Of a stretch of DNA of 64,000 bases, positions 1,248 to 64,000 are shown piece by piece (position 1 is the stretch's first letter; each line of letters begins with the position of its first letter). The stretch lies in IMG/VR virus record IMGVR_UViG_3300033121_001188; one strand, 5' to 3'. The translations under genes and the position numbers were made by a program. Below the pieces are notes generated by a model. It saw nothing but the letters and a program-made list of their open reading frames with translations. It searched no databases and was not told where the DNA came from. The DNA comes from an uncultured virus (IMG/VR IMGVR_UViG_3300033121_001188) (Duplodnaviria > Heunggongvirae > Uroviricota > Caudoviricetes).

Positions 1248-2114
1248 ATGAATGCAAACATTGCAAAAATCGTAGACAAAATTATGGAAGTAATGCAAAA
1301 CCCGCCGCAACGAAAAAGAGTTTGGAAGTACGCAAACTGAAACTATAACCTTGTAAGCGGTAAACAATACCATGGGATTAATGCTTTTGCAACTGGTTTA
1401 TCAAGACTAGAGAATTGATACACTAGCCCCGCACGAGTAACCTACAAACAAGCAACAGAGCTTTGAGGCAATGTAAAAAAAGGCGAAAAAGCTACTATTG
1501 TTATACGGTCAAGCCCTATAGTAAAACTAGAAAATGGTAATCCTGTCACTAATGCAGATGGTGAAAATGAATTGCTACGGACATACAAGGCATACTTTGT
1601 TTTCAACCTAGACCAATGCGACAACATACAGTCACCAGCAATAGTTGAGCCTACAGTACAAATAGAGCCTATAGATTTTTGTGAAAATGTAGTCAATCAA
1701 TACATCTCCAGCGAGTGAATAACACTTGTAGAGTGAAACGATTGACGTTGTTATTATGTACCTAGTCAAGATAAGATAAGCATGACGCCAATAAAACTAT
1801 TTGATAGTGCAGAGGCTTACTATAGGGTACTGTTTCACGAGATGATACATAGTACAGGAGCGCCACAACGTCTAGCCCGCAAATTGGAGGGTCAAATGAA
1901 TACGTTTGGTAGTTATGAATATAGCGTGGAGGAATTAGTGGCAGAGTTTGGGAGCGCTATATTGTCAGAGGTTGTTTGAATTGGTGCAGATGTCAATAAT
2001 AGTGGAGCTTATTTAGGCAATCGAGTACAAAAAATAAAAGAGACTAAAAGACAGCAGGAAGTATATCGAGCTATACAGAGAGCCACAAAGGCAGTTGATT
2101 ATATTACAAAATAA
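1248..2114 (+). CDS. ardC: ArdC-like ssDNA-binding/antirestriction protein with C-terminal zincin (MPTase) domain
   Basis: 288 aa recoded: PQWKRVW..NLVSGKQYHGIN..WVTYKQA..GGNVKKGEK; HEMIHSTG..RLAR..FGS..YSVEELVAEFGSA..AYLGNW. Confidence 0.9.
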
Positions 2115-2637
2115 TATCTTTTATATCGTTACTTACTATCAATGACCAAACTAATAGTATTAGACGCCACAACAGGACTGGCGCACTTATACAATGTAAA
2201 CACCGCAGACAACGACGCTATTTATGAGCGGGTAACGGAAAATTATTGAAGTGATGCAGTGTATATGGTATATACAGAGATTATAAAACACAAAGGTACA
2301 ATAATAATGTAATATTTTATATCCCCTATTATATCATAAAGTATATTCTTTGTTTATTATTATGAGCCTTTTGGATTGCTTGCTATTTATTTGCTTTTAC
2401 CAACTAATCATGCAACTTACACAAAAACAGGTAAACAAAAAGTACAAATGATGGTATATTGAGTTTACTCAATCCTACGATTATGATACTAGACAACGAT
2501 TATATCAAGTGAGTAAAAAAAGTAAAACTATTATAGAAAATATGACATTATGACAAGACGTAGGCACTAATTTGGAGTACACAAGATAACATAACACACT
2601 TACAATTAGTTATATATTTATATTATTCTTACAAGAC

Positions 2638-3348
2638 ATGACAAAAACATTCACAATTACACCGCAAGACGTACAAGAGCTTGAAAAAAACGCCACGTCT
2701 TGCTTAACAAGTGATTGCATGGTAATCTCATTACTTGCCCTATTTTGCGACCAGCGGGATTTTGAAACATGGGAAAACAACAACATTGAGCGGAGACTGG
2801 ACAACGAAAAAGAAATTCTTGACAATCTAGATTATGAAGCCTCATTTTTGCGCGCTCTTAGCAAAGAAAAAAAGCTGTTCTATGTTGATAATGTTGCAAA
2901 GTTTGATGATGACTTAGCAAAATATCAAGAAGCAACGAGGGAAAAATTATGCTCATGAGATACGATTGAGGCATGAATACAAAAGGAGTATGACAATAAT
3001 ATGGAAAAGCTATCCGAAGAAACATATAAGGAGTATTTGAGCGGTGATTACCACAATACGTGAGTAATACAAGGAATAAAAAAAGAACTAGACAAGAAAG
3101 GGTATGGTTTCGAGTACGATATCAAGTCTGATATAGCCACTATTACTCGAGATGATGATGATTTTGTGAATAAACAAAGGTTCTTGAATATGGCACATAA
3201 TCATATTATCGCTAGAAAAGAAGAAGCAAAAGAAAAAAACGCCAAAAGAAAACAAGAACTCATAGAACAAGAAAAAAGAAAACAAGAGCATATAGCGCGG
3301 ACTATGGAAAAACAAAAAGAACGTATATTGAATAGTATCACAGAATAA
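2638..3348 (+). CDS. Hypothetical protein, 236 aa
   Basis: Track ORFs 2638-2958 and 3166-3348 join in frame through TGA codons. Confidence 0.75.
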
Positions 3349-8178: not shown

Positions 8179-8622
8179 ATGTGATACACTACAGACTTCA
8201 GCTGACAACTGATATTCAGCAAACCATTATCAGAAGCACAGATTACATTGTTCGAACAAATCTCTTGAGAGAGGGGAAATACAGTACAGTCTAAACGAGG
8301 AGGAAAGGCGCCAGACTCATATTGCGCTCGGGAAATAACAAAAGATGGTACATGATTAGAACGAGACGGAAGCGAGAAGTTTTACTATTATGAAGAGTGG
8401 CTCAACTACATCGAAACACAGGTACTAAGAAAGCGAGGCATTATAATGGAGGGAGGGCTACAGTTTCAATGAGAAGAGATATGAGATACTTGAGTAATCA
8501 AGAGGAATAAGGACGGGCAGCGAGAAGCAATGCAAATCGAAGCCATTGGACTGGTGTGCTGCCCAGAATGCTGACATAGATTTATGGCAGAAGAATGAGA
8601 GGTTGACGAAGATGAAGAATAA
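8179..8622 (+). CDS. Conserved phage hypothetical protein (MGYTTDF family)
   Basis: MGYTTDFSG..YCAW..LEWDGSEKFYYYEEWL..QGEE; codon 2 is TGA. Confidence 0.8.
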
Positions 8623-10436
8623 TATTTATCATTATATTTTACACATGAAAAGACTATTATTACTACTATCAATTACGCTATCGTTCTGATTTGTGTTTGC
8701 ATTCGAATGCACCAACTGATACCGAAAAGACGGTCAGTGTTATCTGAATGATAACACAGGGTATTACAAATTCTATAAGACACAGCAATGTAAAGAGCAT
8801 GTCTTCCAGCTAGAAGACGAGGCAAACAAAAATAGAATGCGTAAAGCTATCAATGACCTAGACAAAGAAATAGACAGGCTCATAGAAATGAAGGCAAGAC
8901 TGCATGAAGATTTGATGTTTCTTCCAAAGATAACGAGTACAGTCATCAAGTGTACTGAAATAGAGGAGAGTATATTTATACCAACTGCAGTGAAAACAAT
9001 AACCAAAATCAAGTATAGATTGCCTATTACATGAGTAAGCAGATAGACCATGAAAAGATATTTTTGGAACGGTGAGCCAATCACAAGTTATTGGTTTATA
9101 TACCATTCAATAAGATTTCGCTCTACACCAAAAAGATCTGGTACCGTATACTTTGGCAGTAAGTGACATATTCAATGGGATATAAATATCCTAGCTCCGC
9201 CGTGATGGGAACCACCAGCTATTGAAATTGTACAAAGAGATGCTTTTATATCAGTACTACAGACGACATTCCCGAATTGCCAGTGCGTAGAAACTATATG
9301 TGACAATCGGGCAAAAGAACGGGAAAAAAAGAAAGAAAAATTATTATATGACGAGCTACAGTTTATTCCATGATCCTGACAATACAGACAGACGTTGAAA
9401 GCATTAGCAGAGATAGAGAAGTGACCGCGAACGGATGACGTAGAGGTAACAAAGCGCATAGTATCGGCATACATCAGACACAATGAAACAAACTACGACG
9501 ACTTATACAATACGTATAACGAAAAAGAAAAAAACCGCGCAATAGTACATGACAGAGTACAATATATATTCAAGTCTCGAGCTTGAACTTGGAAAGAAAA
9601 AACTATTTAACTCTATAAATTCGCATTGCAAAATGAAAAAGAAAAGCTACACTATCTATAGTTCCCAAAAAGAACTAGACCCGCAAAAGTATCAGAAGTT
9701 CCCTTGAATGTCCGCATTATACTGCCTGTATAAAGACTATCGGGAAGCATATTTGGCGCTCAAAGAAGCAAGCCCACAAGCTAGTGACGAAAGCATTAGA
9801 CAGGCTGCGTTCCAGCACATACTTACATGCTCGCCAGCTTTATCTATTAAAAGAATGACATAATGTATACATTTGACAGCTGGCAAGACGCCATAATATT
9901 TGTTGTTCTATTACTTATCCACCTAGTTCTATAATGACAAAAAAAAGAAAAGAAACGGCTGAACAGCGAATTGATAATAATATGGAGGCACTGCTAGAAA
10001 AGTTCTCCAGTTGATTTTGGGATTTTGCCATGCTCAGTTATCGCACAGTACACAAAAATAAAATATACCACGAGTCGTGGTTCGAAGAAGACAAGAAGAA
10101 AAAAGCAGAGCGATATAAATATGCGTTGAGATACTACGTCTATAAGAAGAGATATGGATTAGACGACCCAAGAACGATAGAAGCTAAAAAATTGATACCT
10201 ATTTATCCAAGAAACAAAGATGATAAATAAACTTTTTACGGACAAGAATTACAAACCAAGCGACGACGAAACTAAAAATCTATTGAAAGAGCTATTTGAT
10301 GAATTGCATTGAGACCATACGTTATCGAAAGAGGAGTCATCAATGTTAGATAAAGCAAGATGACACAAACTATGTCGGTGTGGTCAAAGAGTATCAAACG
10401 AGACAGACAGATGCGCTTTACACTTTAACACATAAT

Positions 10437-11789
10437 ATGGATAAACTAATAGAAAAATGACTACGCCTATGCCAAGAGCTAGGATGAAAAAGCTATATCG
10501 TATGATGAGCTGTAAGGGATATGCTTATGGGCGCAGAAATACACGACGTAGACATTGCTACTAATATCAGTATAGAAGAGATAGAGAGTAAGTTGGACAC
10601 GGTAAATATAGGTAAGAACAAGGATTTCTGAATAGTTGTAGTAAACTTTGAGTGAGATATGTTTGAAGTAGCACACTTTAGAAAGGATGGCAAATACTCA
10701 GATAATAGAAGACCAGACGATGTCGAATTAGTCGATAGTTTGGAGGATGACTTGGCACGTAGAGATTTCACAATCAATGCTATGGCTTACGATTGAACTA
10801 CAGTCATAGATTTGTTTGGAGGGCAGGACGATATTAAAAAATGAATTATTAGATTCGTAGGAAAGGCAGAAGATAGAATAGCGGAGGACGGACTAAGAGT
10901 ACTGAGAGCGTATAGATTCGCAGCAAGATTCAAATTCCAAATCGTAGATGAGCAAGAGATGACCTGATGGAAGCCTGTATGAGTAGCCCAAGAGAGGGTT
11001 ACTGAGGAGTTCAGAAAGGTTGCATCTTATTGACCAAAAGCCCTAGCATTCTATCTCCATAGAACATCATGGAATCAAATTTATAGCTACGGATTTAGTC
11101 GTATGTCTTGAATGCCACACCATATCAAGCATCATCCAGAGGGAGACGTATTTGAGCACACGATATCCTGCCTATCTCATGCAAGTGAGTATAGCGAGCA
11201 AGGATACTTAGCTGCCCTTTGTGTTGCCTTCCACGATATAGGTAAGATTGTAACAGCCGAGTATAAAACAGACGACTTAGACATAGGGTATTGTACATAC
11301 TATGGACACGACATACAGTGAGCTATCCTTATGAATGACATATGACCTAAGCTCAAGTTATCTAGTGATGAGATAAAAGCCATACAATTCGTATGCCAAT
11401 ATCACATGATACGATGGGAGTTCAAAAACCTCAAAGAATCTAAGAAGCTGGAGATAGCAAGAAGCCCATACTATCCTCTACTAGAATACACCACTCACGC
11501 AGATGAGATGAGCAGATTGTATCTAGCAGACTATGAGAGACGGTGCGATATTGCTGCTTATGTACAGTCATGGAAGACAGAGAGAGATTGGCTTGCAAAT
11601 TACGATGAAAAAGTTAAACTACTAATAGATTGAAATATGATTAAGGAGTATATACCAAATATCAAAGACAAAGATATAGGTATACTCAAAAAGGCAGCAC
11701 TAGAGTTCATAAACGATAATTCCATGCTAGTAGACAAAGAGCAAGTAAAACAATTTATCCTTAACCTGACTGGAGATGCCAATTCCTAA
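10437..11789 (+). CDS. cca: CCA-adding tRNA nucleotidyltransferase with HD domain
   Basis: VGGAVRD, DVDIAT, EDDLARRDFTINAMA, EDGLRVLRAYRF, HHPEGDVFEHT, FHDIGK, YGHD. Confidence 0.92.
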
Positions 11790-11977
11790 TTGAGCTCAAG
11801 AAGCAAAATGCCTTGGTTGTTATCAGAATAACGCAGATGTACGGTACAATGGGAGCTGATATTGTGTTAAATGTGCTAAGGAATTAGATGAAGCTACCAC
11901 TAGCATGTTTAAGTGGTTATGAATAGCAGTAGTAGTAATTGTAATAGCATTTACTTATCTTATAATCTTCGAATCAA

Positions 11978-12313
11978 ATGGTTAAAATGTATTGTATGGT
12001 ACTGTATAGCTTAAGCCCTATGCAGAAATGAATCCAATCCTTGCACGCAGTTGCAGAATATATGTCTGAATTCGGACAAGAGGAAGAAACAATTGATTGG
12101 GTGAAGAACCACAAAACAGTGATTGTCTTAGATGGCTGAACTAGTCAAAAGATGGACGAGATAAACAACCTACTTGACAGAATAGCATGATTAAGGTACG
12201 CATATTTTGAGGAAGAAGACTTATGAGGACAGCTAACGGCACTATGCTTCTTAGTAGACGACTCAGATGACCTACTCAAATACTTTATCAATAACTTCAA
12301 ACTCGCATCATAA
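11978..12313 (+). CDS. Pth2-like peptidyl-tRNA hydrolase fold protein
   Basis: LSPMQKGIQSLHA..W....KTVIVLDGG..FEEEDLGGQLTALCF. Confidence 0.6.
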
Positions 12314-12508
12314 TGGCTCTATTTTGAAAAATATATGAATCTATGGAAAAGCAAGTACAGTCATATAAAGAACTGTGCCGTATACAAAACGACTTAATGC
12401 AACTCAAAGATGAAGAATTGAGTGCCGTGAAGCAAAAATTTGCCAGTGCGGTTATAACTTGGGAAAGAGAAAACCCAGAATCATTTAATAAGTGGGACAA
12501 ATGACAAT

Positions 12509-13117
12509 ATGCTTAATAACTTTTATAATTACCCTTGGAGATTCAAGGAAGGCGAATTCTACTTCATTCAAATAATTCGCAGAGCAAAGGATCAGAGTGT
12601 CATAACGGCACAAAAGTGAGACAATAATCAAAGACTGATTAACTCGTATTACATATATACGCAAGAACAACTAGACCTCAGAATGGATGAAATGATAGCT
12701 ATTGCAGACGCAACGGTTTCTAGAGTCATGGTGCACCCAGCCCGCAGAAACAAAATGGAAATAGCAAAACTGACGCAATACCTACTAGCACAGAATATGT
12801 ATAGCAATACGATAGACGGTATCAGCAGGATATACAATACTGCATGTTGAACAAGTCGCGGCGTAGAAAGATTGCGGTTGATAGATGTAGACGGGGAGAA
12901 TGCCTTCGACTTAGCCAAAGATATAATATTTGACATAACAACAACTGGCTTGTATTGAGTGCAGGAGCGGGAAAACTATATCTTACCAACCAAAAACTGA
13001 TGTCATATTATTTGCAAACCATTTAATAGCAAAGTATTTAGCGAAAGATTTCCTTGAGTTGATATACATAAAAATAACCCAACCGTGCTTTATATCCCAG
13101 ACACACCATGAAAATAG
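12509..13117 (+). CDS. Conserved phage protein, possibly AEP (primase-like) fold
   Basis: FYFIQIIRRAKD..WLIDVD..PTKNGCHII..IHKNNPTVLY (DxD and GxH motifs). Confidence 0.55.
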
Positions 13118-13788
13118 TTGCAATATGAGACATACATTGATTAAGTACACGAAAGGACATTCTAGAAAAGGAAAAGGATTTCGACCTTTGTGTTTTTATA
13201 GGAGACTATTTTGATAATAGGGACGGCATATCTGGGGCCGACGAAATAGAAAACTTCAAAGAAATTTGCAAGCTCTCCAAGAACGATAAAAGAGTGGTAC
13301 TGTTATTGGGAAATCATGATCGGCATTATATGCTATGAGCCACACAACGTTTTTCTTGATATAGGTCAGTACAGTCATTACTTGCTTGACCCATACTATC
13401 TGCCATGCGGAATAACTTAGAGATAAGGCCACGATACATAGTTGATGACATTATATTTAGCCACGCATGACTAACAAACACACGAGCAAATAAACACAAT
13501 ATAGACATACAGGAATACACACAAGACGACATGCTGTTTAGTGCATTGGCATTTCAGCATACGGATGAGCACGACGTATCTGGGACAAGTATCAACCAGT
13601 GACCCTTGCGAGTAAGACCGTGATATGTATGATATTATCTATATCACCCCGTCCATTTCAAGCAAGTCGTGGGACATACTAGAACGCCAGAAATATATAC
13701 TAAAGACTGAGTCACGCATATAGACGCACTACGGAACGGTAAATACCTAGTAATAGAGGATTGATTATTTATTCCCAAGACAATATAA
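13108..13788 (+). CDS. Calcineurin-like metallophosphoesterase
   Basis: GDIHG, GDYFD, GNHD, SHAG, GPLWVR, QVVGHT. Confidence 0.9.
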
Positions 13789-13965
13789 ATAGAATTCAGC
13801 TATGACGACCCCATATCTAACGACAGTTTAGAAATCTAAAACTCCAGAATTACAAGATATATTGGGTAAAGGAAAATTATACCGCGACGCACAGTATTAA
13901 AATCTATTGCAAATAGAAAACAAATCAATAATGTATAGTACTATTTTTAGTACTACACATTTTTT

Positions 13966-15213
13966 ATGTATCAGGCAATTATTGGAAGATTAACAAGGGT
14001 TAGACAGCACCCAAATGCTGATAGACTACAACTGGCCACAGTTTTCTGAAGCCAAGTTGTCGTTTCTACAGAGCAGAAAGAAGGCGATCTTTGAATTTAT
14101 TTCCCACCAGACTGAAGGCTTGGCGAGAGACTTTGTCAAATCAATGACCTAGTTAGAAGAAAAGACGAGCACGGAAACAATGTTTGATGAATGTTCGACG
14201 TCAATAGAAAGGTAAGATGCCAAAAGTTTAGGTGAGAAAAATCGGAATGATTTTGGTCTCCAATTGAATCATTAAGCTATCTCTGAGATATAGAGCGAGA
14301 GGAGGGTCAAATGATCGATAAGATTTGAGACGAGGTAATCTGTGAAAAGTTTTTCAATAAAGCAACGTTAGCGGCCGCCAGTGGGAATAAACAACGCAAA
14401 TGATCGTTGCCCACATTCCCAAAGCACGTTGATACAGAAAATATCAAATACTATCGGGACGATATAAAAAAATGAGACATCATAACAATAACGTCCAAGC
14501 TACATTGAACATCTGCCAGAAGCGGAAACACGTTCGTAGAAAAAAAGCAAAATCGATTCATGAGAATGCTCTGATTTAAGGATACTTTTGTTACTGAGTT
14601 TTTGAACTGAAGCAGGAATGTTATTCTTGCCGATGGCAAACAAGATGGATTTTACAACAGTAATTTTAGAGATAAGGCAGCTAAGCTATTTAGGGATTGA
14701 AGAAAGTGAGAGATATTTTTCTACGAAATAGTGTGATATGAGGGAGACTGAACTATCATGCCAAGAGTAGATATAAAATCCCTAGATAAGGACACGCAGA
14801 AAGACTTGAGGGATGCATGAATGCCAGAAGTAATGACATACCACTATTGATGCGCTCCTTGAACGTCCGAAGTCTATGTATATAGGATAGCAATGGTTAA
14901 TGAAGACGGTCATATGATTGAATATCCACGAAACGAAGTAAAGGCAAGATGCAATCAACTTGGCATTAAACACGTACCAGAGCTGTATCAGGACGTATTC
15001 AAGGGGAATGTCGACGTATTGCAAAAGAGAGTCAATAAACTCCACGACGGACCAGACACAATAGGTAAAACGCACCGAAGAGAGTGAGTGGTTATAAGAG
15101 TAGACAGAGCAAACTGATGAACAGAGTTCTATAAAGCTAAGAACTTTATATTCCTGTCATTAGAGTCGGCACAAAAGGATACAGACGCCGTTGATACAGA
15201 AGAAGCCAGTTAG
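13966..15213 (+). CDS. ATP-dependent RNA ligase with N-terminal OB fold (DRB0094/Rnl2-like)
   Basis: HPNADRLQLA, RGEKSEG, FPKHVDT, SKLHGTS (motif I), YEIVG, HVPEL, EGVVIR, YKAKN. Confidence 0.85.
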
Positions 15214-15403
15214 TTTATAATTTTCAAATAGATATGATAACAAAGACGTTCGACGATATAAATACAGAGGAATTAGATGACTATGTCTGATGCTGTGATG
15301 AATGCTGAGAAACTATATATACACGACAAGAGTATGAGGATTATGGTGGCGTCTTGACGTGTCAATATTGCATTAAATAACTGTTTTATTCTATTTCCTG
15401 CAT

Positions 15404-16273
15404 ATGAAATCAATAATTTTACGCTGATTGCCTGGTATAGGTAAGTCTACATGGGCTAGAGCGCAAGAAGGATACAAAATAATAAGTCTTGATAACATTA
15501 GAAAAGAATATCCTTATATGAAAGAGTGGCAGGTCCACGACGAGCAGGCAAATCAAATACGCTTTGAATATAATTCATACAACGATATTATCGTCGACAA
15601 CACCCACATGAGTCAACAGGCTCTAGATAGTATCAAGGCGTTTTGCGAGTCCGTTGGATACGAAGTTTCTGTCAAAGATTTTATGGCAGAAGAATCATCC
15701 CCACGAAACGCGCACGCAAAAGCAACTGTTCAGAATCAGATCAGAGTTGAAAGAGTACCCCAATCCGTGATAGACAGAATGTTTTTATGAGCCTACAATA
15801 CATCGGTGGATGAGTGAAGAGATAAGATATATATATTCGATATAGACGGAACAATAGCAAATATAGACCATAGACTTCACTATGTAGAATGAGATAAAAA
15901 GGATCGGCACTCATTCTTCTGCTGTCTGCACGAAGACAAGCCATACAAGGCCGTTGTGAATGTAATGAATCACTTAGCTAACGACTTGAATGCCACAATT
16001 GTACTAGTAAGTTGAAGACCAGATAAGTATGACCTTGAGACGGAAAGACGATTACAAAGAAATAATATACCATACGATTACATTCTCATGAGGAAGTCAC
16101 GAGATAAAAGACCAGACACAGAAGTAAAAGAAGAAATATATCACAGATGCCTAGAAAAAGAAAAAGAAAAAATAGTTTGTGTATTTGATGATAGGCAACG
16201 TCTTATAGATATGCGAAGAAGTAAATGATTATATGTATTTAACTGTTCACAAAAATTAGATAATAACTTTTAA
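15404..16273 (+). CDS. pnkp: Polynucleotide 5'-kinase/3'-phosphatase (T4 PseT-like)
   Basis: RGLPGIGKSTWA P-loop, IVDNT; HAD domain DIDGT, VSGR, MRK..D.RPD..VK, VFDDR. Confidence 0.92.
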
Positions 16274-16460
16274 CCATGGACGCACTGAAACTGTTAGGGA
16301 AATTGATTGTGGTGATCGCCATTATACGAGTAAGTATAAAACGATCTGTACGAGTAGAACACACTAAGTATGACATAGCTTGCTCTGTTGCAATGTCATG
16401 AGCGCACGCTGTTGTTTTCCCACTAAAATGACAAATGTGTATCAATAGATAAAAAATCTC

Positions 16461-16488
16461 TTGATTTTCGATTTTATTTCATTATACT
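16461..16488 (+). promoter_or_regulatory. Promoter of the replication operon
   Basis: TTGATT-N16-TATACT followed by a structured leader. Confidence 0.55.
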
Positions 16489-16650
16489 CATCCCAGCCAT
16501 AAGGCGACCATAAACGGTATAGGGTCAGAGCTTGCCAATATTAAAAAAGATTAGGTGGGTATACCTATATCGACACTAAGGACACTTGGACTTCTGACCC
16601 CTAAGTGTCTTTTGTTATTGCAAACATATTTACTTATACGCATCAGCACC

Positions 16651-20207: not shown

Positions 20208-20222
20208 CCATATTATAGGAAC

Positions 20223-20534
20223 ATGAACTTTGAGGGAAAGATTGTATTTATGTCTGACGTAACAACTGTAGGACAAAACAACACAGAGAAAAGAACAGTG
20301 GTTTTGGAAGAGACTAAGGAAGAGTATCCAAACAGCGTGGTGTTGGACGTTATTGGTAAAGGAGTAAAAGGAACTAGCGGTCTGAAAGTTGGCGATGTTG
20401 TTATTGCAAGCCTTAGCTTCAAAGCCAAAGAATACAACGGCAAGTGGTACAACTCCGTAGGAGCTTGGAGATTTGAAAAGTCTAGTAACGCTGCGTCAAT
20501 TGCCGACGACATTGATGATGATGAATTATTCTAA
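20223..20534 (+). CDS. DUF3127-like OB-fold ssDNA-binding protein
   Basis: EYPNSV..GDVV..EYNGKWYNSVGAWR with acidic tail DDIDDDELF. Confidence 0.8.
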   Translation: MNFEGKIVFMSDVTTVGQNNTEKRTVVLEETKEEYPNSVVLDVIGKGVKGTSGLKVGDVVIASLSFKAKEYNGKWYNSVGAWRFEKSSNAASIADDIDDDELF

Positions 20535-20569
20535 TTGAACTGAATGTATACGCCTATATTGGCGTATGC

Positions 20570-21178: not shown

Positions 21179-21179
21179 C

Positions 21180-22530: not shown

Positions 22531-23382
22531 ATGAATATACTTAGTTTATTTGATGGAATTTCTTGTGGTAAAGTGGCCCTTGAGAGGGCATGAATTAAGG
22601 TCGATAAATACTATGCGTCTGAAATTGATCAATATGCCATACAGATAAGCTCCAAGAATCACCCCAATATTATACAACTATGAGATGTCAACAATTGGAG
22701 AAATTGGGATATAGACTTTTGAAAGATTGATCTGCTGCTTGCTGGGTTCCCCTGTCAGAGTCGGTCTATTGCCTGAAAACAATGATGAATAGAGGACCCA
22801 AGATGATTGCTTATGTATCAAATGTTACACATATTGGAACACATCAGGAAGCAGAATTCAAATATCAAGTTTTTGTTCGAGAATGTTGTAATGAAAAAGG
22901 AGTTTCTGGTATTTATAAATAAGGAGATATGAGTTGAACCTATTTGCATCAACAGTTCGCTCCTAAGTGCTCAAAATCGTAAGAGGATGTACCGAACTAA
23001 TATTGATGGGGTTATACAACCAGAGGATAAATGAATTACATTAAATGATATATTAGGATTCTACACCTACAATGAGGTACTTAGGCAAGAACAATATAAC
23101 AAGGTAAAGTGACTTGGTGCAGAATATGGGTTTGGTGGATATATATTAAAGGACAATGCTGAGAAGTATGGTACATTGACAGCGTCATATTGACAGATCA
23201 CTGGAAACAGTGCAAAGATAAGATGTAAAGAATGATATAGGATATTAACACCAGAAGAGGCGGAACAGCTGCAAACACTTGATATATGATATACAGCTGG
23301 CATCAGCACAAGACAACGCTATAAAACAATAGGCAATGCACGAACGGTGGACATAGTGGCTCATATTCTATCTTTTTTATAA
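22531..23382 (+). CDS. DNA (cytosine-5) methyltransferase
   Basis: LSLFDGISCG, EID, GDV, GFPCQ, FENV, QNRKR, IGNAWTVD. Confidence 0.93.
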
Positions 23383-27131: not shown

Positions 27132-27431
27132 ATGAAAATACGATTAGATGACGTAAGATTTCCACCAGATGAGCATCGGGAAGAAGCAAGAACGCCAATG
27201 GATTTCTATAGACTAATTACCAAAAATATAGAACTAGTAACACAGGTCTCATTTGATCATGATTTATGAGTAGAACTAACATGATATGATTGCTTGGACT
27301 GGATGCTAAAAACATATAGGTTAGCATGAATAAAACCACCAGCCATAAAACTTCACACAGCTAATCCAGTATGAGAAGACAGGATGAACAGACTGCTGGA
27401 CGAACGATGAGACAAGATTATTAGACTATAA
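27132..27431 (+). CDS. Cyclic-phosphate-processing receiver (cREC)-like domain protein
   Basis: KIWLDDVRFPP..W..SFDHDLG..TGYDCLDW..HTANPVG..RM. Confidence 0.8.
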
Positions 27432-28552: not shown

Positions 28553-28653
28553 GGTTGATGTAGCTCAGTAGTAGAGCAATGCAAAAAGGTATCGGGGTTT
28601 TCAAACTTCTTCCCATTAGCAAGTGTTGCAGGTTCGAGCCCTGTCATCAACCA
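28553..28653 (+). tRNA. tRNA-like RNA with an enlarged anticodon arm (identity unresolved)
   Basis: GGTTGATG/CATCAACC acceptor, D arm GCTC-AGTAGTA-GAGC, T arm GCAGG-TTCGAGC-CCTGT; about 36 nt between TGC and GCA. Confidence 0.7.
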
Positions 28654-32304: not shown

Positions 32305-33573
32305 ATGAATCAAAAAAAATGCTGTGTATGCCAGCAATTCAAAGAAAAAACTCCACAAAACTTCTATTTCTTCAAAGACAAGAGAGACGGAAGAATGTAC
32401 GCGCAGAGTAGATGCAAAAGTTGTGAGTCAGATTATAAAGCCAAGAAAAAGATGGCACCATTGACTGATCAACCAGACACAGAACAACTAACAACAACGG
32501 AAGAGAATGGCGTTTATGAAATAAAGTATCACTGAGAAAATTTGAAGACCAAAGCAGAGTTTCTAGCACACATTAACTTTGACCCGAGCATCTCTGAAGA
32601 GACGTTCTATCAATGCAACGTAAGAGAAGTATTACTTAGGACTGGCAAAAACGAGTCTATGCTCGTTAAAAAGTACGATCACTTGTTCAAAACAAAACCC
32701 AGAACAACCCCATGATTATCACAAGCAGATCTTGAACAAATACTAGTCGACACATGTAAACGCGTAGCCGTAAAACGCCCATTAAAACAACGCAACCAAC
32801 AAATAAACAGCCTTATGATGGAATTTGGATTATATGACTTCCATTTGAATAAATATTGTAGCGAAAGCGAAACTTGACAAAGACGAGATCTAGAAACAGC
32901 TGAAAGAGTTTGGCACGAAGCAACCATGCAATGTATTACATATGCACTTGCACACAATCTAGAGCAGATAGTTTATGTGGTAGGAAACGACTTCTTCCAC
33001 GTAGATTGAATGAATAATGCGACAACAGCATGAACTAGACAAGACGTATCTGGTATGCGAAAAGAAGCATACAAACTATGACTAAAACTACAGAAGCAAA
33101 CGATTGACGCGCTTAGTGACATTGCTCCAGTAAAAGTTATCGTTGTTCCGTGAAACCACGACTCCCAATTAACGCGGACACTTGGAATAGCACTGAATGC
33201 CATATACTGTATGGACGATAATGTAGAGGTTGACGCATGAGATAGTGTACGTAAGTACTACAAGTGGTGAGATAATATGTTTATATATGCTCACTGAGAT
33301 AGAGAGAAGCCAGAAAAACTGCTACCGTTAGCGGCCACAGAGCAGCCAATGATGCGGGCAACAAGCAAATACAGGACCGCGAGACTATGACATTACCACA
33401 GCGGTAAGCAAATTGATGTTTACTGATTAGATGTGGAGTATATGAGAAGTATGACAGCGACAGATAGTTGGCACGCCGCCAATGGATATATAGGAAATAT
33501 TAGATCTGGTAAAGCCGTACTATGGAAAAAGGAATGAGGCAAATATACAGAATTTTATATATATAATCAATAG
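32305..33573 (+). CDS. Metallophosphoesterase with N-terminal Zn ribbon
   Basis: CCVC..RCKSC; DFH, GNDFFH, PGNHD, AHGD, GHYH, DSWH. Confidence 0.85.
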
Positions 33574-38175: not shown

Positions 38176-38421
38176 TTAGTTTACGTTTCAAGTAGCTCAA
38201 GTCGCTGGTATAGACACATAACCAGTGCTATATCATGTTTCTGTGCATAAGTTCCCAGTTAATACTTCTATTGTTGTTGTTTCGTCTGTAGCTGGCAATG
38301 TAGTATGTATCACTGCAGTAGCAAAACCAAGGGCAAATACTATTGCTTGTGACCATAGCCACTTGAACAATCTTACTCAATCATCAATTACGTTCTCTGT
38401 CAACCAGATTTTGTCTTTCAT
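38176..38421 (-). CDS. Small membrane protein in the lysis cassette
   Basis: 81 aa, one hydrophobic helix. Confidence 0.55.
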
Positions 38422-38891
38422 TTTTGTGGTGAAGCTGGAATAAATTTATCTATAATGGATTTCAATCAGTTATTTAGCCTTACTAGTGTTTCAGTTACCG
38501 CATCGTATTCTGCAATCTCTTTTCATGTTCTTATCGAGATTATATTTTGCATAATAGAATAGAGTTCTGCAACGCAAAGTATAAACATAGAAGACGATAT
38601 CCACGTTGCTACGTCTCAGGTGGACGGGGTGGCTGCTTTTGCTATTAGCGCCAGCAAGAATGGTATCGCCATCATAAGCATCTTGCTAATAACTCACCTC
38701 CGCATTTCATTGCTTGTGGGTTTATGTCATATGTATTTAGCTTTCAATAGTCAAGTTATTGTGTCAAATATAAGTAGTATTGCCAATATAGAATAAACCT
38801 CTGAGTTTAGTCAGAGATACGCAAACAAGCAAGATACTATTGGGTATAATGCTCGTCATCAATTCTTTATGCAAAATGTCAATGTGCTCAT
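38388..38891 (-). CDS. Phage holin
   Basis: Several TM segments; DTITG..S..MWRGVISK..AELYSIMQN pattern of the toxin-secretion/phage-lysis holin family. Confidence 0.78.
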
Positions 38892-39106
38892 ATAGCTATG
38901 CTTCATTTTCTGTTATATTTGGGGCAACTTCTGTTGGGATAGGTATTCCGCAGCAATCATTTCATGCAGTGTATAAGACGTTATCTCAGTCTAATTTTAC
39001 TGATGCTTCTGACGTTCATACGTTTTTTAGCCACGTCTGCAACGATGCTAAGTGTTCTTCTAGTGATATTCCTTCTGGCATGATTTTATTTTATATAGTA
39101 TCTAAA

Positions 39107-55323: not shown

Positions 55324-56898
55324 TTAGTCGTCGTTGAGGTCAACATCTCCAGTAAGACCATCACATGTTGCTGGGTCTGTAGTAAGCATTGTAAGTGCAG
55401 TTGCACAAGTAGTTGCGTCACACATAGCTTTTGATTGGAAGTTAGTAACAAATTGATAAGCTCCGCTTCCAACATGTTTCCAGATTGAAGCAAATGTAAA
55501 GTTACCGATCATTTGAGTACAATCTGAGTGTCCAAGCGTTGCTTTGTTTACGTCTGCATTAGAGTAGAGTTCAACAGTTGGCATACCCTTGTTGTAAAGA
55601 GCTTCGATCTTACCGCCAGTTTGTGTAACACCTGCAATAGGCATTTGGTGGATAGAGAACATGCTCTTTGGGAAGAAGAAGAATACGCTATCATTGTCGA
55701 ATACAGCATCTAACAATTGAGAATGAACAAATGTGTATGTCAACCCCATGTAAGTGAAATACTGCCATCCTCTGTTGTTGTAAACAATTCTTTCTGTTTC
55801 GTTAGTGATGTCTCTGTAAAGAAGACCACCGTTTCCGAATTTTTCTCTAATTGCTTCATTCATGTCCCAGATAGCTTGCATAGCTTTGCTAGAGGCCCAA
55901 ACTACTACTTCTTCTCCGTTGTTGTACACACCAGAGTTCTTGATAGGAGTAAGTACTGCTCTTATAAGCTCTTGCAAAATATCTTCATCACATGTTGCAG
56001 ATGCACAGCACGCGTTAAAGTTGTGGAGGAATGTACCACATCCAGCGTCTTGCAATACTTGCATTTCGTTGAAGATACCCATTGTTTCAGCACCGTAATC
56101 AGTTGCAGAAATAGTTCTCTTAGGAATGTTTCTGTCGAAAATGATCTTGTTTGCTAATTGAATGTTGAAGTCAGCGATAACTGGTCATACAATCTCTTGG
56201 ATGTAATCAGAAATTTGGTCGCCGCTTTCGTTGTGGTATCTATGTCTATCGAGGTTAAGATCACAGATAGTGAAGTCGATACATACAGGAATTCTAGTGA
56301 AGTAAGAATTTTTCTTGATACTCTTGTAAGTGTATCTTGAAGTAGAGCAGTAAGTGTTTGTACAGTCACCAATAACACCAGTTTTACCAACCTTAGTAAT
56401 TGTGTCTCCTGCTGCCAAAGTTACAGCGCTGTCAAGAACGATTGTAGTTGGAGCAATTGCATCTGGAGTAAGATTTGATACTACTCTGAAGCTGATTGTT
56501 CCATCTGCTTTCTTGATTCTAACTTTGTCTCCAATGCTTAAACCGTTGAAGTTGTCATAAGAATCGATTTTTGATACTAGTACATTCGCAGTTGCTGAGA
56601 TTGTAGCAGTAACAGTTGCTTTAGAGAACATAGGTGTGTATGGTCTTTCGTACCATGTAAGTGCACAACATTTGTTAACCATCCATTCTGCTTTTGCGTC
56701 AAATGGAAGTCCTCTCATTTTAATTGTAAACATTGTTTCGCCGTTTTCCATAACTTCTGCATACGGATCGAATGCAAGATAGTTAATGTCTGGGAAAAAG
56801 CTTTGTGTAAGCGTAAATAAAGGCAAGCCTTCCTCTTGGAACGAATTCTGTAACTCGGTCCAGTCAAAACTTGCTACGCAGCTTTCGTTTGCTGACAT
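55324..56898 (-). CDS. Major capsid protein, 524 aa
   Basis: Two track ORFs joined by one TGA (56185-56187); follows scaffold and portal; ETMGI motif; biased codon use. Confidence 0.8.
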
Positions 56899-57807: not shown

Positions 57808-59814
57808 TTATATTGCTTGTCAAGATACAAGCGGTTGTGGTAGCTGTTGTTGCTGTGCCTGTTGTTGCGGTTGATACTGTATCCCAACTTTTTCAAATAA
57901 TTGCGCTCTAATATTTTCGTCTCATACGGCCAATATATCCTCTAGCCTCATTGTAAGAGATATATTAACTGGTTTAACCTCTGGTCATTCCACTGGAGGT
58001 ATATACTTATTCCTTATCTCTTCTGATTCTTTTAGATATTTATATCTTTCTTCTTGTTCCGCTTTTTTATCTGCTGGAGTTTGAATAAGCTCTGATATTC
58101 CAGCAAGCTCATATATCTTATCTACAAGAGCTCTATAGTTCGTTGGGTTCTCTCATGTTACTGGATCTGGTGGCAATCCCTGCACGTATTGTATGACGCT
58201 CACGAGCTGCTCTAATTTATCCGCGTTTCCTCCTATAAGGTCATCTGTGCGGAATGTTATGTTATATCAGTTAGATATATCTTTGACAGTAATTGATTGT
58301 ATTTCGTCATCAGACATCGAATCGTCTAGCTCTATGTCTTGACCATGAGCTTTTATAAGCAATACACACTTCTCAGCTGCATTTGAAAGGCTTGAAGATA
58401 TGTTGTTAACCAAGGATACTATCTTGTTGCTGCTTGCCTCGTATTTCAGCGATGCTCACTTTGAACTCCTTTCGATACCTCATGTTCCGCCCTCAGTATA
58501 TGGGTTTAATCACACCTTCGCATTAAACTTCGTTTCAACTCTGTCTAGCTCGCTAGATAGGGCCGCTATTTGACTTGGCTCTATCACTCTGACTGGCGAT
58601 ATTCATGCATTTGATTGTCATGGTGCAGCCTCAATGAATCATCGTGCCTTGTATGAAAATACTTGGCTATTATTCTTATTTCTTCATATCTCTGTTTCCT
58701 TAGAGAACATTGGATTACCAAGCATATTGATCGCTATCATCTTTGTCTCTTGAAGTCTATCGGCCTCTGCCTGATACGATGCTCACATGTCTCATAGTCC
58801 TGATCAGTACACTACTCATGGTATTATCTTGTTCCTAAAGTGGACTATTGGCGATCACTCAAACGCATATTGCGATGGTCACCGATAGATCATCTCTTGG
58901 TTAATAATAACGCAATTATATGTAACATATTTTCCGTTGGTCTCTTTTATGTCAACAAATAAGTCAATAACTTCAAAACTATCATCACTAATAGAATAGA
59001 ACTCTTTTTCACTTTGTATTTGTCACCTTTGTATTGCAGATAGTAGTGAATCTGTAGTGCGCTGCGCGTCACATATTACCTTGTTCTGATATGATTTAAT
59101 GTCCTTGACTCTGTTATAATCGTATAGATAGTATCATTCCTTATCTTTAATGAGATCTCGCTTTGTTGGTTCAATTGTATACAGCTCTCTTATCTGCTTC
59201 TCTGTCATGAAGCATCTGTCTCCTGATATTCTATTTAGTCAATACGGATCTATGATGGCGTCAAATACAGATACATATTTTAATACTGGATAACTCATAG
59301 AAACATCATGAGATACGACTTCCGTAGATCAATCCTTTTTCTTTTTATAGTTATCTACAATAGACAAGTTCTTGTTTTTCCACATGATCTTTAGGAATCC
59401 ATTTCCCGTTAACAGTGCTTCGTCAATAGCTTGGTTGATGGCAAGATTATTGTCCTCTCTTGAAAATATCCACTGGCAAGCCTTTTCGTACATCTTTGCC
59501 CCCTTGTTGTTTTTTTTACCAGCATACGAAGCGGCCCTTACCCTTTTTAGATTGAGCTTACTGAGCATTCAAGAAAATGTATTGTGCGCTCTTTCGATAA
59601 GATCTGTCTTGGAGTCAGGATTATACTGCCGCTCCAATCAAAGCTCCTTCAGCACAAGAAATCTTCTTGCGTTATATCACAACAAGTTTTCATAGTCCCT
59701 TATCCAGCATGGAACGTATTTGCTTTGTATGTACGAAGTACAAGAACTTGCCCGCGCAAGCATTTGGTCTCTTACTTCTTCTGGAGTGAGATTGTCTATT
59801 TTTTCGATATTCAT
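57808..59814 (-). CDS. Portal protein (P22/SU10-like), 668 aa
   Basis: AIDEALLTGNGFLKIMW, VSVFDAIIDP, Q-rich tail; size and synteny. Confidence 0.75.
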
Positions 59815-60265: not shown

Positions 60266-63200
60266 TTAGTGTCCATGCTGTTGATAAAAGCTCGTAGTTA
60301 CGAGTTACAAATTTTTTCATATCCAATGCATCTTTGAATATATCTATTGGGTCATATTTACCTCATATTTTCTTTCATGACACTCTTCCTGATGTTCATC
60401 ATGACTTTGGAAGCGAATCGTCTTGCACTGTTTTTATTATGTATTCCTTTGCCCGATCGTTTATATAGTTAGATGATGCGAACAACTCTCACAAAGCCCT
60501 GTCTCCAAATTCTCTAAGCTCTGGGTATTTTCATGGGTTATTAGTGTATTCTAACAATGCATCGTAGTTATTTTTGAACATCTCTGTCATCACAACCGCC
60601 TTTGCATCTTCAGATATTGGCATTCATCTCACTGTTGACAATTCATCTCCCATAAATGCAAGCTTGAATCTAGCGGTTAACGAGTCCCTATCTCTCTTCT
60701 CTTTTTCGTTTTTGGGTTTTACGCCATCGTTGATATATATTTTGCTTGCCATAAGAGATAGCTCGGACAGCTCTCATGTTTTTGGAAGCTCTCACTTGGA
60801 AAGTCTTCAAAACATTTCTAGCCTTTTTTGTACATAGGCCTCTTCTCATGGCGTCGGCGTAATTCATACTACTCCTTCTTGGTATTTGTTTACAACTGTC
60901 ATATAAGCTGGATTGTTAGCGGCCTGCACCAATGGTAGAAGCTTTTCCGCAATAGCTAATTTTACATTTCTTCTGTATAGCTCGCTGGACGATTCTGATT
61001 TGTCAATTACGTCTATATACATTGTTCAGTCTGGGTTTAACCCTATTTCATGTTTCTTTTTCAACTGCTTGGCAGACAAACCAAATTCAGACTCTGATAT
61101 AAAGTCTCATTTTTTAACTTCTTTTATTCAGTTGACAGTGGCTATATATCAGTTTGCTGGTACATATACAATGTCTCATTTTGTTGCGCTATCTACTAAT
61201 TGGTTGGCCATATATGTTAACAACGCATAAGATGTTCATGGTCCTCAGTTTTTCAATAGACCAATTGCCTCTCAGTGTGCCTTCATAAGCTTATCTGTTT
61301 GGCTTCCAGCAACCTCCAAGAATTTTGCATACACGTCTCATCATCACATTGATTTCGCAAGAGTGGCTTTATAGAGATCTGTTATCTCGTCGTTTATTAC
61401 TGATCACTCTCCCTCAACTGCGGCCGTATTAAACACAACCTTAAACACAGCATCCTCAAACTTTTTCTCGTCCTTCGTATTACGATAGAGCTGCTGTCGT
61501 TTTTGTATTGCCGATTGGAGTACGTTGTCTCATGCGTAGAATCATCTGATTACAGTATCTGAGTTCAGCTTATCGACCTTCTCGTCTACTTTTTGCGCAA
61601 ATGGTAAAATAGACGCATAATCCTTTGTGTTGGATATAATAGTCTTGAATGCCTTTGTAATTGGGCTGTTTTTCCACAATAAGAATGGATAGTATATTCA
61701 CTTAGTCTCTGCGTTTAGTAATACATTGTTGTAATCCGCCCTTTCTCTTGCATTTGTTCTCATGATCGCTTGTTGTGACTCTAGGTTTAACGCTTCGTTG
61801 AACTCCCAGTTTTTTTCTGAGAATAGCGCATCTCAAAGAGTTCCTTCATCATCAATTGCGATGTTTCTTTTAATTGTATTTACGTTTGCGAAAAAAGTCT
61901 GTGAAATAGCTTCTGTGAAGTAATCTCGTCCTTTGCCGTCTGTGGTCGCAGCGGCTCATACGAGTCCAGTAACTAATCTAGATACGGCTGGTAGCAATCT
62001 AATTTGTCTGCCAAACTCCCTAATAGACTGGTTAAGTCACTTATATAATGCGAACTTTGTTCAAGCGTCTAGGTATCAGTCTATTGTCTCAACCACTACC
62101 CTTCAGTATGAATTCGCCATCACTCAAGCACTCAGTAAAGAAAAGTTCGCTAGATTGGATAATCTATCAATATAGTTCTTGTCTGGCCTTCATTGTATCC
62201 TATTTATTCTCTGCTCTCGTAGCAATCAGTTCAAAAGCATTGCCATTGCAGCTTGAAACTCTAGCGCTCAAAGTCCATCTGTAAATTGTGATAACGCTTC
62301 CTTTACTCAGCCGTTCCTAAATCAGTTCACGGCTCATACGAACGGCGTTGCAAAGTTTCTGGCATGGGCTTTCATGACGGCCAATCACCATCATCCCATA
62401 TACATTCGTAGCCTATTAGCGGTAGCGGCGATAGACTCATTTTGAGCCTCTTGTGCAAACTTAGCAGCGCTGAATCATCTTAGTGTTGGCATAAAAACAT
62501 TTTCTGCCCTATCTGCTATCTTCTGTAATAGATCTGCTTTTCAAAGTGCGTCTGCCTGTCTATATTGTGTCAAAAATGCCTTTACTCATCAGAACTTCTC
62601 GGCTGCGGCTTGGAAGGCAAGCTTCTTTACTTCTGGATCGAACACAGCTTCTGCAATATCTCACGTGTTAGATACGTTTGGCTGAAACTTGCTATTCAAC
62701 AGATTATTTTTATACGATCTTATAACGCTGCCTATTTGCCTCCAAGCCTGTACTCATTTTTGATATGTGTCCTTATTTAGGCCAGTTGTTGTAAACTCGT
62801 CTAACTCTAAGAACGCCGTATTGTTACGTATGTATCCTTCGTTGATCATTAACTCTAGCATCTCAGAAACATCTTGATCGGAGTCAAACAACAGTCTGGA
62901 AAATGTTGCATACTGTGTTTTTGATTGAATGGCTTGTGGTATAAACTGATAATGGCTTAATATGGGACCAAATATTTTCGCAGCCTTACTAATTCGCTTA
63001 ACCCCCCTATAAACCCCCCTTTGCACTGCTCACCACGCTCATGCAAGTTCCTCTAGGCTCTTTCATCATAAGTGCTCTAGTATGCCAGTTAGTTCGTTTA
63101 CCTTTACGTTCCAAAATTCGTTTGTTTGTATATATCTTGCAAGGTCTGGAGATAGTTGCTCGTAGCTTGCGAATATGTCATTTCACGTAAAGAACTTCTC

Positions 63201-64000
63201 CAGCGCCATTGGTTCTTTGCTAGAAGAAAGCACGTCCTTTACTTTTTCTGATGCCTGTATAAACATCTTTTGTACTGCTGGATCGAACTCTGATCTTTTC
63301 GAGTTAACTTGTAAGTACTTTCTTGTATTTCTAAGAGAGCTTTCAATGTCAACTATATACTTGGGATTCGATCTTGCCCATCTGAGATATTCAAGAGACG
63401 TATTGTCTCATATTGACAATCACGACTTAATCCTATCAATATCAAACTCTACTGCGTCTTGTGGTCTTTCAACATAGTCAAATTGTCATACGGATTCTTT
63501 TATAAATGTTCAAACCTTTCATGCCTTACTTTGCTTCTTTGGTTTTTCGTAGAACAATTGTTTAATTGACTGCTCTATGTCTATTTTGCCAATAAACGGC
63601 TGCACAATGCTATTGTATTTGTTTTGCGCCGCTTTTGGTAATTTTTTCAAGAATCATCCAAACAAGGCTTGCGTTTCCTCTGTGATGTCTTTATCTAGTT
63701 GCTTGATGTCGCAGTATGTCATGCTAATTACATGGATTATTGATAGATTGTATCTGTTCGTCTATTTCTTGCACTATTTCGTTAGACTGCTTATACGTTG
63801 GTGTTTTCTTTATCTTCTGTTGATAAAACATACTGTCTGGCGTCTTATCAATTAGTTCTATAGCAGATGGCCTTGACACAATATCCTCTATAGCAGATAA
63901 CTGTTGTTGATTTCATCAAAGCGCAGCTATTACCGTTTCTCATATATTGGCATCCGCAAATTCTCTTCTAAGATTATCTTGTATCAGTTTTATTGCATCT
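60033..64000 (-). CDS. Very large helical protein (internal virion/ejection-like), 5' end outside the window
   Basis: Over 1300 codons apparently open under the recoded table; includes track ORF 62754-63026. Confidence 0.65.

Follow-up and report, generated by a model that had tools for sequence, protein, structure and literature searches.

The DNA considered here is a 64,000-nucleotide stretch (hereafter the window) from an uncultured tailed virus (IMG/VR record IMGVR_UViG_3300033121_001188; Caudoviricetes), and the feature under study is the genetic code in which its genes are written. The analysis indicated that this phage contig segment (1..64000) belongs to a tailed phage using the code predicted for SR1 bacteria, in which UGA is read as Gly, CGA and CGG are read as Trp, CGU, CGC, AGA and AGG are read as Arg, and UAA and UAG are the only stop codons; a probability of roughly 0.85 was assigned to this reading. 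Taken separately, the assignment of CGA to Trp is firm and that of CGG, for which fewer sites were available, is well supported. The host-type code is reproduced in the phage even at conserved Trp and Gly sites. That all three codon changes of a host clade should be followed by one of its phages is something to be expected, but is, as far as the literature was searched, undocumented.

The reassignment of these codons had been proposed in a first-pass annotation, and each of the 11 coordinates on which that proposal was based was found to carry the codon claimed for it in the context claimed for it (11/11). TGA is present at 10503 and 10506, within the motif IVggAVRD, and at 8182, where it is the second codon of its gene; CGA is present at 1311, 1434, 2022, 8362, 23341, and 27141, and CGG at 1506 and 15905. 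In each of the motifs GDIHG, DISGSM, and KLHGTS, a Gly is encoded by TGA. The genes concerned include an ArdC-like gene (1248..2114, + strand; ArdcN plus zincin peptidase domains), which contains four CGA, two CGG and seven TGA codons; a gene matching phrog_38666 (8179..8622, +), which, besides the TGA at its second codon, contains five CGR codons (R, A or G), among them that of the motif LEwDG at 8362; and a gene for a CCA-adding enzyme or poly(A) polymerase head with an HD domain (10380..11789, +), in which the GGxVRD motif is spelled TGA TGA.

The coding density of the window was compared under translation tables 11 and 25, as the first-pass annotation had suggested. Under table 11 only five open reading frames (ORFs) of at least 150 amino acids were present in the window, while 54 were present under table 25. 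The share of the window lying in stop-to-stop frames of at least 100 amino acids was 0.32 under table 11 and rose to 0.89 when TGA was treated as sense, as compared with 0.58 when TAG and 0.70 when TAA was treated in that way. The G+C content of the window was 0.34-0.40, and the 45 genes tabulated end in TAA (35 genes) or TAG (10 genes).

Codons were then counted in 64 non-overlapping ORFs (17,554 codons in total), which contain 703 TGA, 134 TGG, 83 CGA and 50 CGG codons, together with 52 CGT, 46 CGC, 369 AGA and 150 AGG codons. Across the 45 named genes TGA accounts for 641 of 1,116 Gly codons (57%) and, if read as Trp, CGA and CGG together account for 116 of 217 Trp codons (53%); Gly and Trp are thus each encoded in the phage mainly by reassigned codons. 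Altogether 836 codons, spread over nearly every gene and including early genes, require the changed reading, and standard tools misread about one in 20 codons of the phage.

The reading of CGA and CGG as Trp is contained in none of translation tables 1-6, 9-16, and 21-33. Table 25 reads TGA as Gly, as is the case here, but its rule that all codons except TGA are read as in table 11 fails for the phage, and 133 Trp codons in the 64 ORFs are turned into Arg; the earlier statement that even table 25 would mistranslate these codons was correct. With table 4, Trp is additionally assigned to the 703 Gly codons. This table was used for the public copies of proteins from the contig (P0001, P0121, P0241, and P0391; 95-98% identity), which have W at TGA and R at CGA and CGG. 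The database copies of these four window proteins lie on a contig of 76,195 bp, of which the window is 64 kb, leaving ~12 kb outside.

The amino acids found by homologues at the positions of the disputed codons were examined in four protein families. Homologue sets contained 119 sequences each for ArdC, for the polynucleotide kinase-phosphatase (PNKP; gene at 15404..16273, +, with a match to the Pfam family HAD_PNKP), and for the phrog_704 exonuclease (gene at 32305..33573, +, PHROG match), and 149 cluster representatives for the metallophosphoesterase (13108..13788, +, with seven CGR codons). The alignments were made with TGA, CGA, and CGG masked as X, and yielded 1,164 well-filled columns, of which Trp was the most frequent residue in 25, Arg in 53 and Gly in 81. 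Note that the queries used to collect the homologues carried R at CGA and CGG, and retrieval was therefore biased against Trp. In these alignments, 11 of the 21 CGR codons fell in Trp-topped columns and 16 in columns topped by W, F or Y, and none fell in an Arg-topped column (hypergeometric p = 1.1e-14). Similarly, 21 of the 37 TGA codons fell in Gly-topped columns and none in a Trp-topped column (p = 1.9e-16). The outcome that the first-pass annotation had named as fatal to its proposal, CGA and CGG on Arg columns or TGA on Trp columns, was thus seen in 0/21 and 0/37 cases.

Individual columns were often close to invariant. In ArdC, CGA22 was aligned with W in 112 of 118 homologues and CGA259 in 118 of 119, and CGA63 was aligned with W in 79, F in 26 and Y in 12. 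In PNKP, W was found in 108 of 118 homologues at CGG168, 113 of 119 at CGA216 and 116 of 119 at CGA271; the gap column at PNKP CGA101 was dropped. The metallophosphoesterase gave W in 143 of 148 homologues at CGA15, 135 of 149 at CGA126 and 147 of 149 at CGA168, and the exonuclease gave W in 110 of 119 at CGG351 and W in 63 with F in 26 at CGA252. Columns dominated by Phe or Tyr were found at ArdC CGG87 and CGA274, at metallophosphoesterase CGG72 (F 56, Y 56), and at exonuclease CGA194 (Y 111) and CGG291 (F 76, W 25). In comparisons with proteins of known structure, W residues of PDB entry 6i89 lie opposite ArdC codons 63 and 259, and codons CGA155 and CGA271 of the C5 cytosine DNA methyltransferase (22531..23382, +; match to Pfam DNA_methylase) align with W of DNMT3B. 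Conserved Arg sites were also inspected, since the first-pass annotation had held that Arg sites use AGR or CGY (Y, C or T). ArdC CGT208 and CGC211 fit this statement, R being present at each in 118 of 119 homologues, as does exonuclease CGT316, with R in 116 of 119.

When the columns were summed as Codetta-like log-odds scores, the 13 CGA columns, nine of which are Trp-topped, gave +54.1 bits for W, with F as the next best amino acid at -19.4 bits, and CGA can be taken as shown to encode Trp. In the same calculation TGA was assigned to G (+57.1 bits) and AGA, AGG, CGT and CGC were all assigned to R. Of the other 58 codons, 52 were read as in table 11, and the six exceptions were rare and weakly scored.

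A further comparison was made at the level of profile scores, using translations by table 25, by table 25 with CGA and CGG read as Trp, by table 25 with CGT and CGC read as Trp (a control), and by table 4. Over 32 Pfam family matches, reading CGR as W instead of R gave a net gain of 69 bits, with 15 matches rising by at least 0.5 bits, seven falling and 10 unchanged. The gains were 13.3 bits for ArdcN (65.6 to 78.9), 12.1 bits for HAD_PNKP (89.7 to 101.8) and 7.2 bits for DNA_methylase (117 to 124.2); MPTase rose from 93.8 to 101 and Laminin_G_3 from 42.6 to 48.7. The cREC_REC domain protein (PF20274; gene at 27132..27431, +, beginning MKIwLDD) scored 71.4 bits with R, 79.7 bits with W (+8.3) and 57.5 bits under table 4. 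In the control, the translation with CGT and CGC as Trp gave a net loss of ~40 bits, including -12.1 for MPTase, -6.0 for Laminin_G_3 and -5.3 for DUF2293. The PHROG database behaved in the same way, and nine of the 10 top matches scored higher with W than with R, phrog_704 rising from 192 to 211.1 bits (+19.1) and phrog_38666 from 45.6 to 56.3 bits (+10.7). Under table 4, all 11 of the proteins tested (11/11) scored lower and one match (Laminin_G_3) was lost; scores under tables 25 and 4 were 118 versus 101.1 bits for PolyA_pol and 117 versus 95.2 bits for DNA_methylase. These results show that TGA encodes Gly in the phage and exclude the reading of TGA as Trp.

The relationship of the phage to other recoded elements was studied next. 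Species-representative genomes were scanned for NADFDGDQM, a motif of RNA polymerase, encoded with TGA for its Gly, which returned 81 stretches, of which 80 loci were taken; all of the stretches fall in SR1, Gracilibacteria or similarly labelled metagenome-assembled genomes (MAGs). Homologues of the capsid-like protein of the window were found in two of 141 genomes of the order that contains those labelled Absconditabacterales and in none of 204 genomes of a sister order, while a tblastn search of 50,697 GenBank phage records and a pattern scan of IMG/VR gave no match to this protein. One of the related sequences is a phage contig of 64,642 bp and G+C 0.27 (G104:C146, loci L186-L189), binned in a MAG of the SR1 order (the Absconditabacterales order). 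Blastp matches on this contig were obtained for 19 window ORFs, with the structural block matching, and sequence identities were 54% for the RNA ligase (window gene at 13966..15213, +), 47% for an exonuclease, 30% for the portal and 25% for the capsid-like protein. Per 1,000 codons the related contig uses 56 TGA, 4.5 CGA, 4.4 TGG and 0.37 CGG.

For 11 pairs of orthologues from the window and this contig, proteins were aligned with the codons masked and the paired codons were then read off. Window CGA stood opposite CGA (4), CGG (1), TGG (1), TAT (2) and TTT (1) of the related contig, and window CGG stood opposite CGA (4) and TGG (2) and never opposite AGR. Window TGG was paired with TGG (7) and CGA (4) and, in the other direction, CGA of the related contig was paired with window CGA (4), TGG (4), CGG (4), TAT (3) and AGA (1). 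AGA and AGG stood opposite AGA (29) and AAA (17), and TGA stood opposite TGA (65) and otherwise GGN. Within the RNA ligase, for instance, window CGG164, CGA322, CGA371 and TGG97 are all paired with CGA, and metallophosphoesterase CGG72 is paired with TGG in the context GNHDW. The pairing indicates that CGA, CGG and TGG are mutually synonymous and are not synonyms of the Arg codons.

In the closest database relatives, Gly columns are occupied by W and Trp columns by R, the pattern of the same double code mistranslated with table 4. Other sources were less informative. For the VWA protein 505 standard phages were matched, all below 60% identity, which gave no information on the code. Metagenome scans gave no match for the ArdC relative P0002 and a single 1.1-kb fragment for the PNKP relative P0127. 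In an IMG/VR scan with the PNKP alignment (80 loci), taken together with the metagenome locus L001, six of 81 loci gained more than 0.15 in coding cover when TGA was read as sense, and none came near the 0.57 of the window.

The tRNA complement expected of a cell with this code was found in the MAG in which the related contig was binned (G104). It carries tRNA(UCA), tRNA(UCG), tRNA(CCG), tRNA(GCG), tRNA(CCU), and tRNA-Trp(CCA). As read from an alignment, tRNA(UCG) and tRNA(CCG) have A1:U72 and G73 and are without A20, the same as tRNA-Trp(CCA), while tRNA-Arg(GCG) and tRNA-Arg(CCU) have A73 and A20. The tRNA(UCA) has G1:C72, C2:G71 and U73, as in Gly tRNAs. The presence of G73 and the lack of A20 are identity marks that were used in the available sections of PMC8629427 for Trp-type tRNA(UCG) and tRNA(CCG). 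Translation of the phage would be carried out by a tRNA-Gly(UCA) and Trp-charged tRNA(UCG) and tRNA(CCG) of the host. Functional phage proteins would then require a cell in which both changes have taken place, and the most likely candidate is a member of Absconditabacterales with a fairly high G+C.

A number of observations weigh against this interpretation. Some Pfam scores fell when CGR was read as W (Acid_phosphat_B by 3.1 bits, NLPC_P60 by 2.5, AAA_33 and SU10_portal by 1.2 each and, to a smaller extent, AAA_14 by 1.1, HD by 0.9 and AAA_25 by 0.5), and the match of the portal to phrog_332 fell from 59.7 to 53.7 bits (-6.0). In the homologue alignments, 10 of the 21 CGR codons lie off Trp-topped columns, five on columns topped by F or Y and five on columns topped by other residues, namely ArdC CGG111 (P), PNKP CGA233 (G) and metallophosphoesterase CGG101 (I), CGA109 (C) and CGG209 (G). 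For CGG there are only eight columns, in which W leads Tyr by just 5.6 bits. A 2026 PeerJ paper, in the sections available, describes the Arg reassignments as not yet experimentally verified and known from computation only. On the side of the host, the window, searched in four pieces against the 141 species-representative genomes of the order, gave no match of the grade of a spacer from a clustered regularly interspaced short palindromic repeat (CRISPR) array, and no repeat array was seen beside any of the 53 short DNA matches inspected. The relatives found in MAGs are whole phage contigs without host flank, which means that the host link comes from binning, and two of 141 against none of 204 is a weak contrast. 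Finally, the ~12 kb of the contig outside the window could hold tRNA genes, and one aberrant tRNA-like element is present in the window itself (28554-28652).

The host-related points bear on the best surviving alternative, in which the code is as described and the host lies outside Absconditabacterales, for example in a relative of BD1-5/Gracilibacteria or in an unsampled clade. This is considered a minority possibility, with the odds well against it. It draws on the missing CRISPR link and on the fact that the MAG relatives are binned phage contigs; matches at 100% identity were only 20-25 nt long, a length reachable by chance in AT-rich DNA. In addition, CGG=Trp was called in some Gracilibacteria in the available sections of PMC8629427, and one Gracilibacteria-labelled rpoC locus was found here with CGG on a Trp column. 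However, the phage contains 83 CGA codons, and in those same sections CGA=Trp is reported only for Absconditabacteria. The rpoC loci of MAGs that read TGA as Gly (L129, L150, and L082) included two higher-G+C genomes with CGA on seven of 26 conserved Arg columns (the third had one of 19), indicating that some members of the TGA=Gly clade retain CGA as Arg, and hosts of that kind would misread the phage. The use of these loci as a survey of the code itself was rejected, there being only two conserved Trp columns, which is too few.

An Absconditabacterales host is also favored over such an outside host by the distribution of the capsid-gene homologues and by codon use, with CGA at 4.7 per 1,000 in the phage and at roughly 4.1-4.3 per 1,000 in SR1-order loci. 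A promoter-like element of the window points in the same direction. This element (16440..16496, +) consists of TTGATT, a 16-nt spacer and TATACT with an A-rich upstream part, and precedes the replication initiator gene. With a 91-bp query containing it, matches were obtained in 47 of 141 genomes of the SR1 order, the best with an E value of 3.6e-9, and in 22 of 204 genomes of the sister order, the best with an E value of 7.6e-6. The matches were commoner and stronger in the SR1 order, although the AT-rich composition may inflate these figures. It was also observed that the stretch is 86% identical over 44 bp to the DNA immediately preceding the tRNA(UCA) gene of four genomes of this order (L171, L173, L174, and L175), and that weaker look-alikes occur in a third of the SR1 order. 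The first-pass annotation had named an Absconditabacterales bacterium as the host. This fits the code, the relatives and the tRNAs of one MAG, while the CRISPR spacer match by which it could have been confirmed was not found; from the code and the binned relatives we infer an SR1 host.

A second and less probable alternative, rated as unlikely, is that only TGA and CGA are reassigned and that CGG is rare-codon noise, ambiguous, or specific for another aromatic residue. The alignments lend this some substance, as the eight usable CGG columns are topped by W in two cases, F or Y in three, and P, I and G in the others, and the summed scores are +10.3 bits for W, +4.7 for Y and +4.1 for F. Reading CGG alone as W also changed little for ArdcN (+0.1), Metallophos (+0.3) and Laminin_G_3 (+0.4) and lowered NLPC_P60 by 2.2 bits. 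By contrast, the same change raised DNA_methylase by 5.6 bits (to 122.6), DnaB_C by 4.4 and HAD_PNKP by 2.7. The two Trp-topped CGG columns, PNKP codon 168 and exonuclease codon 351, are nearly pure (108/118 and 110/119), and no CGG falls on an Arg-topped column. The partners of CGG in the related phage are CGA (4) and TGG (2), in contexts such as GNHDW and TANxW, and are never AGR. A tRNA(UCG), moreover, would be expected to read both codons by wobble, an argument put forward in the available sections of PMC8629427. The reading of CGG as Trp is therefore supported, on few sites.

A third alternative is that the phage brings its own decoding apparatus, with a tRNA-Gly(UCA) and a Trp-type tRNA(UCG) encoded in the other 12 kb of the contig, and forces the code on a host with a different one, in the way proposed for some stop-codon-recoded phages. 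ARAGORN, run with default settings, found no tRNA gene in the 64-kb window, which holds none for any reassigned codon. In favor of the idea are the ~12 kb beyond the window, the tRNA-like element and the related contig, which has four tRNA genes. It is very unlikely. The 836 affected codons occur in nearly every gene, early ones too, where release factor 2 and the Arg-tRNA of a standard-code cell would compete. The four tRNA genes of the related contig are for Pro, Cys, Ser, and His, and none of them fits a reassigned codon, nor does the CCC anticodon of the tRNA-like element. The closest relatives, furthermore, are found in MAGs that use the same code.

In the tRNA-like element itself (28554..28652, +; Rfam RF00005, 43.1 bits) the acceptor, D and T arms are intact, but the anticodon arm is longer by ~25-27 bases. 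ARAGORN called the element only when introns were allowed, as a tRNA-Gly(CCC) in which 25 nt are inserted at the odd position 32/33, and as called it has no anticodon for a reassigned codon. It is unlike any tRNA of the SR1 order. Derivation from a host tRNA as an attachment site was considered and is not supported; with a short query, matches in 19 of 141 genomes were confined to the AT-rich flank and did not include the tRNA body. A gene for a Ro60/TROVE protein is located 6 kb away, and mimicry of tRNAs is a reported property of bacterial Y RNAs. An Rfam search for a Y RNA or YrlA near the Ro60-like gene, covering 20000-29000 with E values up to 1, gave no match.

The last alternative is that the window follows table 25 unmodified, CGA and CGG encoding Arg, and that the Trp coincidences are due to chance or alignment artefact. 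It can claim some profiles that score slightly lower with W, but is regarded as already refuted by the placement of 11 of 21 CGR codons on Trp-topped columns and none on Arg-topped ones (p = 1.1e-14) in spite of R-bearing queries that bias against Trp, and by the lower scores of the CGY control.

The code inferred for the phage has a precedent in bacteria. Shulgina & Eddy (2021, eLife; PMC8629427), using Codetta, predicted UGA=Gly together with CGA/CGG=Trp for Absconditabacteria/SR1, and a 2026 paper in Nucleic Acids Research (NAR) restates the Absconditabacterales code. The features that the available sections of the Codetta study describe are shared by the phage, namely the same three codons, AGA as the main Arg codon and a low G+C, and the marks of tRNA(UCG) and tRNA(CCG) were found again in MAG G104. 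The difference is that the prediction came from bacterial genomes, whereas the present case is a phage. Codon use also differs, the phage having 47 CGA and 28.5 CGG per 10,000 of all ORF codons, as compared with fewer than 37 CGA in all species and fewer than 7 CGG in all but one in those sections, where only Pfam-aligned codons were counted and the figures are thus counted differently.

Phages of this clade have been described before in terms of table 25. A 2023 mBio paper (PMC10746230) described code-25 phages predicted to infect Absconditabacteria, with host links drawn from CRISPR spacers. The available sections of that paper make no mention of CGA or arginine and do not treat a Trp reassignment; in the present case, the code includes Trp and no spacer link was found. 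The nearest parallel for a sense codon is in PMC8629427, the available sections of which report two phage assemblies in which AGG encodes Met and which came from samples where AGG-recoded Bacilli were present. In those assemblies, as here, a phage follows an Arg sense-codon change of its host without its own tRNA for it; codon, amino acid and host phylum are different, and in the present phage three codons are involved, including one stop. These two assemblies fit the earlier remark that sense-codon reassignment is rarely documented in phages. A full-text literature search, whose scope excluded subscription journals and paper supplements, turned up no account of CGA/CGG=Trp in a phage.

The change of CGA and CGG to Trp is among the few sense-codon reassignments proposed for bacteria. 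The phage is a second, independently evolving genome that needs the translation machinery of the same cell, and thus gives independent support that the reassigned CGA and CGG are read in this way. In practical terms, virome pipelines that choose among tables 11, 4, 15, and 25 mistranslate such phages, which weakens homology search and structure prediction. A lock of three codons also narrows the host range, and could be useful for assigning hosts to phages of candidate phyla.

The putative major capsid gene (55324..56898, -) departs from the codon use of the rest of the phage. This gene is named by its position only, following a portal gene and a scaffold-like gene. TGA accounts for one of its 33 Gly codons and CGR for none of its seven Trp codons, as compared with 57% and 53% over the genome as a whole (binomial 2.6e-11 and 0.005). 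In three further recoded contigs, the homologues of this gene (L188:8226-9785, L190:4-1509, and L164:34-1188) are also poor in TGA, with 6 of 35, 14 of 32 and 14 of 37 Gly codons, while their neighbors have 73-91%. A second structural gene of the window, at 42095-42826 (-), has TGA at one of 17 Gly codons. The protein had no Pfam, PHROG or PDB match, a PDB profile search having given a chance hit only (E 0.86), and a model built from a four-row alignment reached a mean predicted local distance difference test (pLDDT) score of 39.7, which is too low for a fold search.

Use of CGG is heavy, at 2.85 per 1,000 in the phage and roughly 0.4-1.8 per 1,000 in SR1-order loci. One tentative explanation, which is rather doubtful at present, is that the reassigned codons are still costly or error-prone and that capsid genes reveal it, and that the heavy use of CGG marks an unsampled SR1 lineage in which CGA and CGG outnumber UGG as codons for Trp. 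If true, phage capsid genes would be a natural gauge of how faithfully a code that has not yet settled is decoded.

The window contains the greater part of a tailed-phage genome. Hallmark genes of Caudoviricetes are present in the form of a portal gene, a holin gene, CHAP and NlpC/P60 lysins, and Laminin_G_3 fiber-like genes, the capsid being named by position. The portal (57808..59814, -) was recognised by SU10_portal at 37.1 bits and by phrog_332 and phrog_1216, and is 30% identical to its counterpart on the related contig; the holin (38388..38906, -) matches Pfam Phage_holin_4_1 at 40.4 bits. No terminase was recognised among the window genes. Genes for replication and DNA handling comprise a replication initiator, a primase/helicase, an ERF protein, the C5 methylase and ArdC. 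The portal, holin, endolysins and replication genes bear out the phage nature that had been proposed for this DNA. The related contig has neither a terminal repeat nor host flank.

A set of genes with RNA-repair functions occupies 10380-16273 and 21153-22523, all on the + strand, and consists of the CCA-adding enzyme, the metallophosphoesterase, an OB-domain RNA ligase, the polynucleotide kinase-phosphatase and the Ro60/TROVE protein. The set resembles a counter-defence module for the repair of tRNAs, which is of note given the reliance of the phage on unusual host tRNAs.

Pairs of paralogous genes were also seen. Two fiber-like genes have a common N terminus (MRHLR...), and two others have in common a different N-terminal module; these two pairs lie at 39107-40969 and 40971-41699 and at 43340-44677 and 48163-48783, all on the - strand. 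The phrog_704 exonuclease-like gene is present in two copies, the one at 32305-33573 (+) used in the alignments above and a second at 37120-38148 (-).

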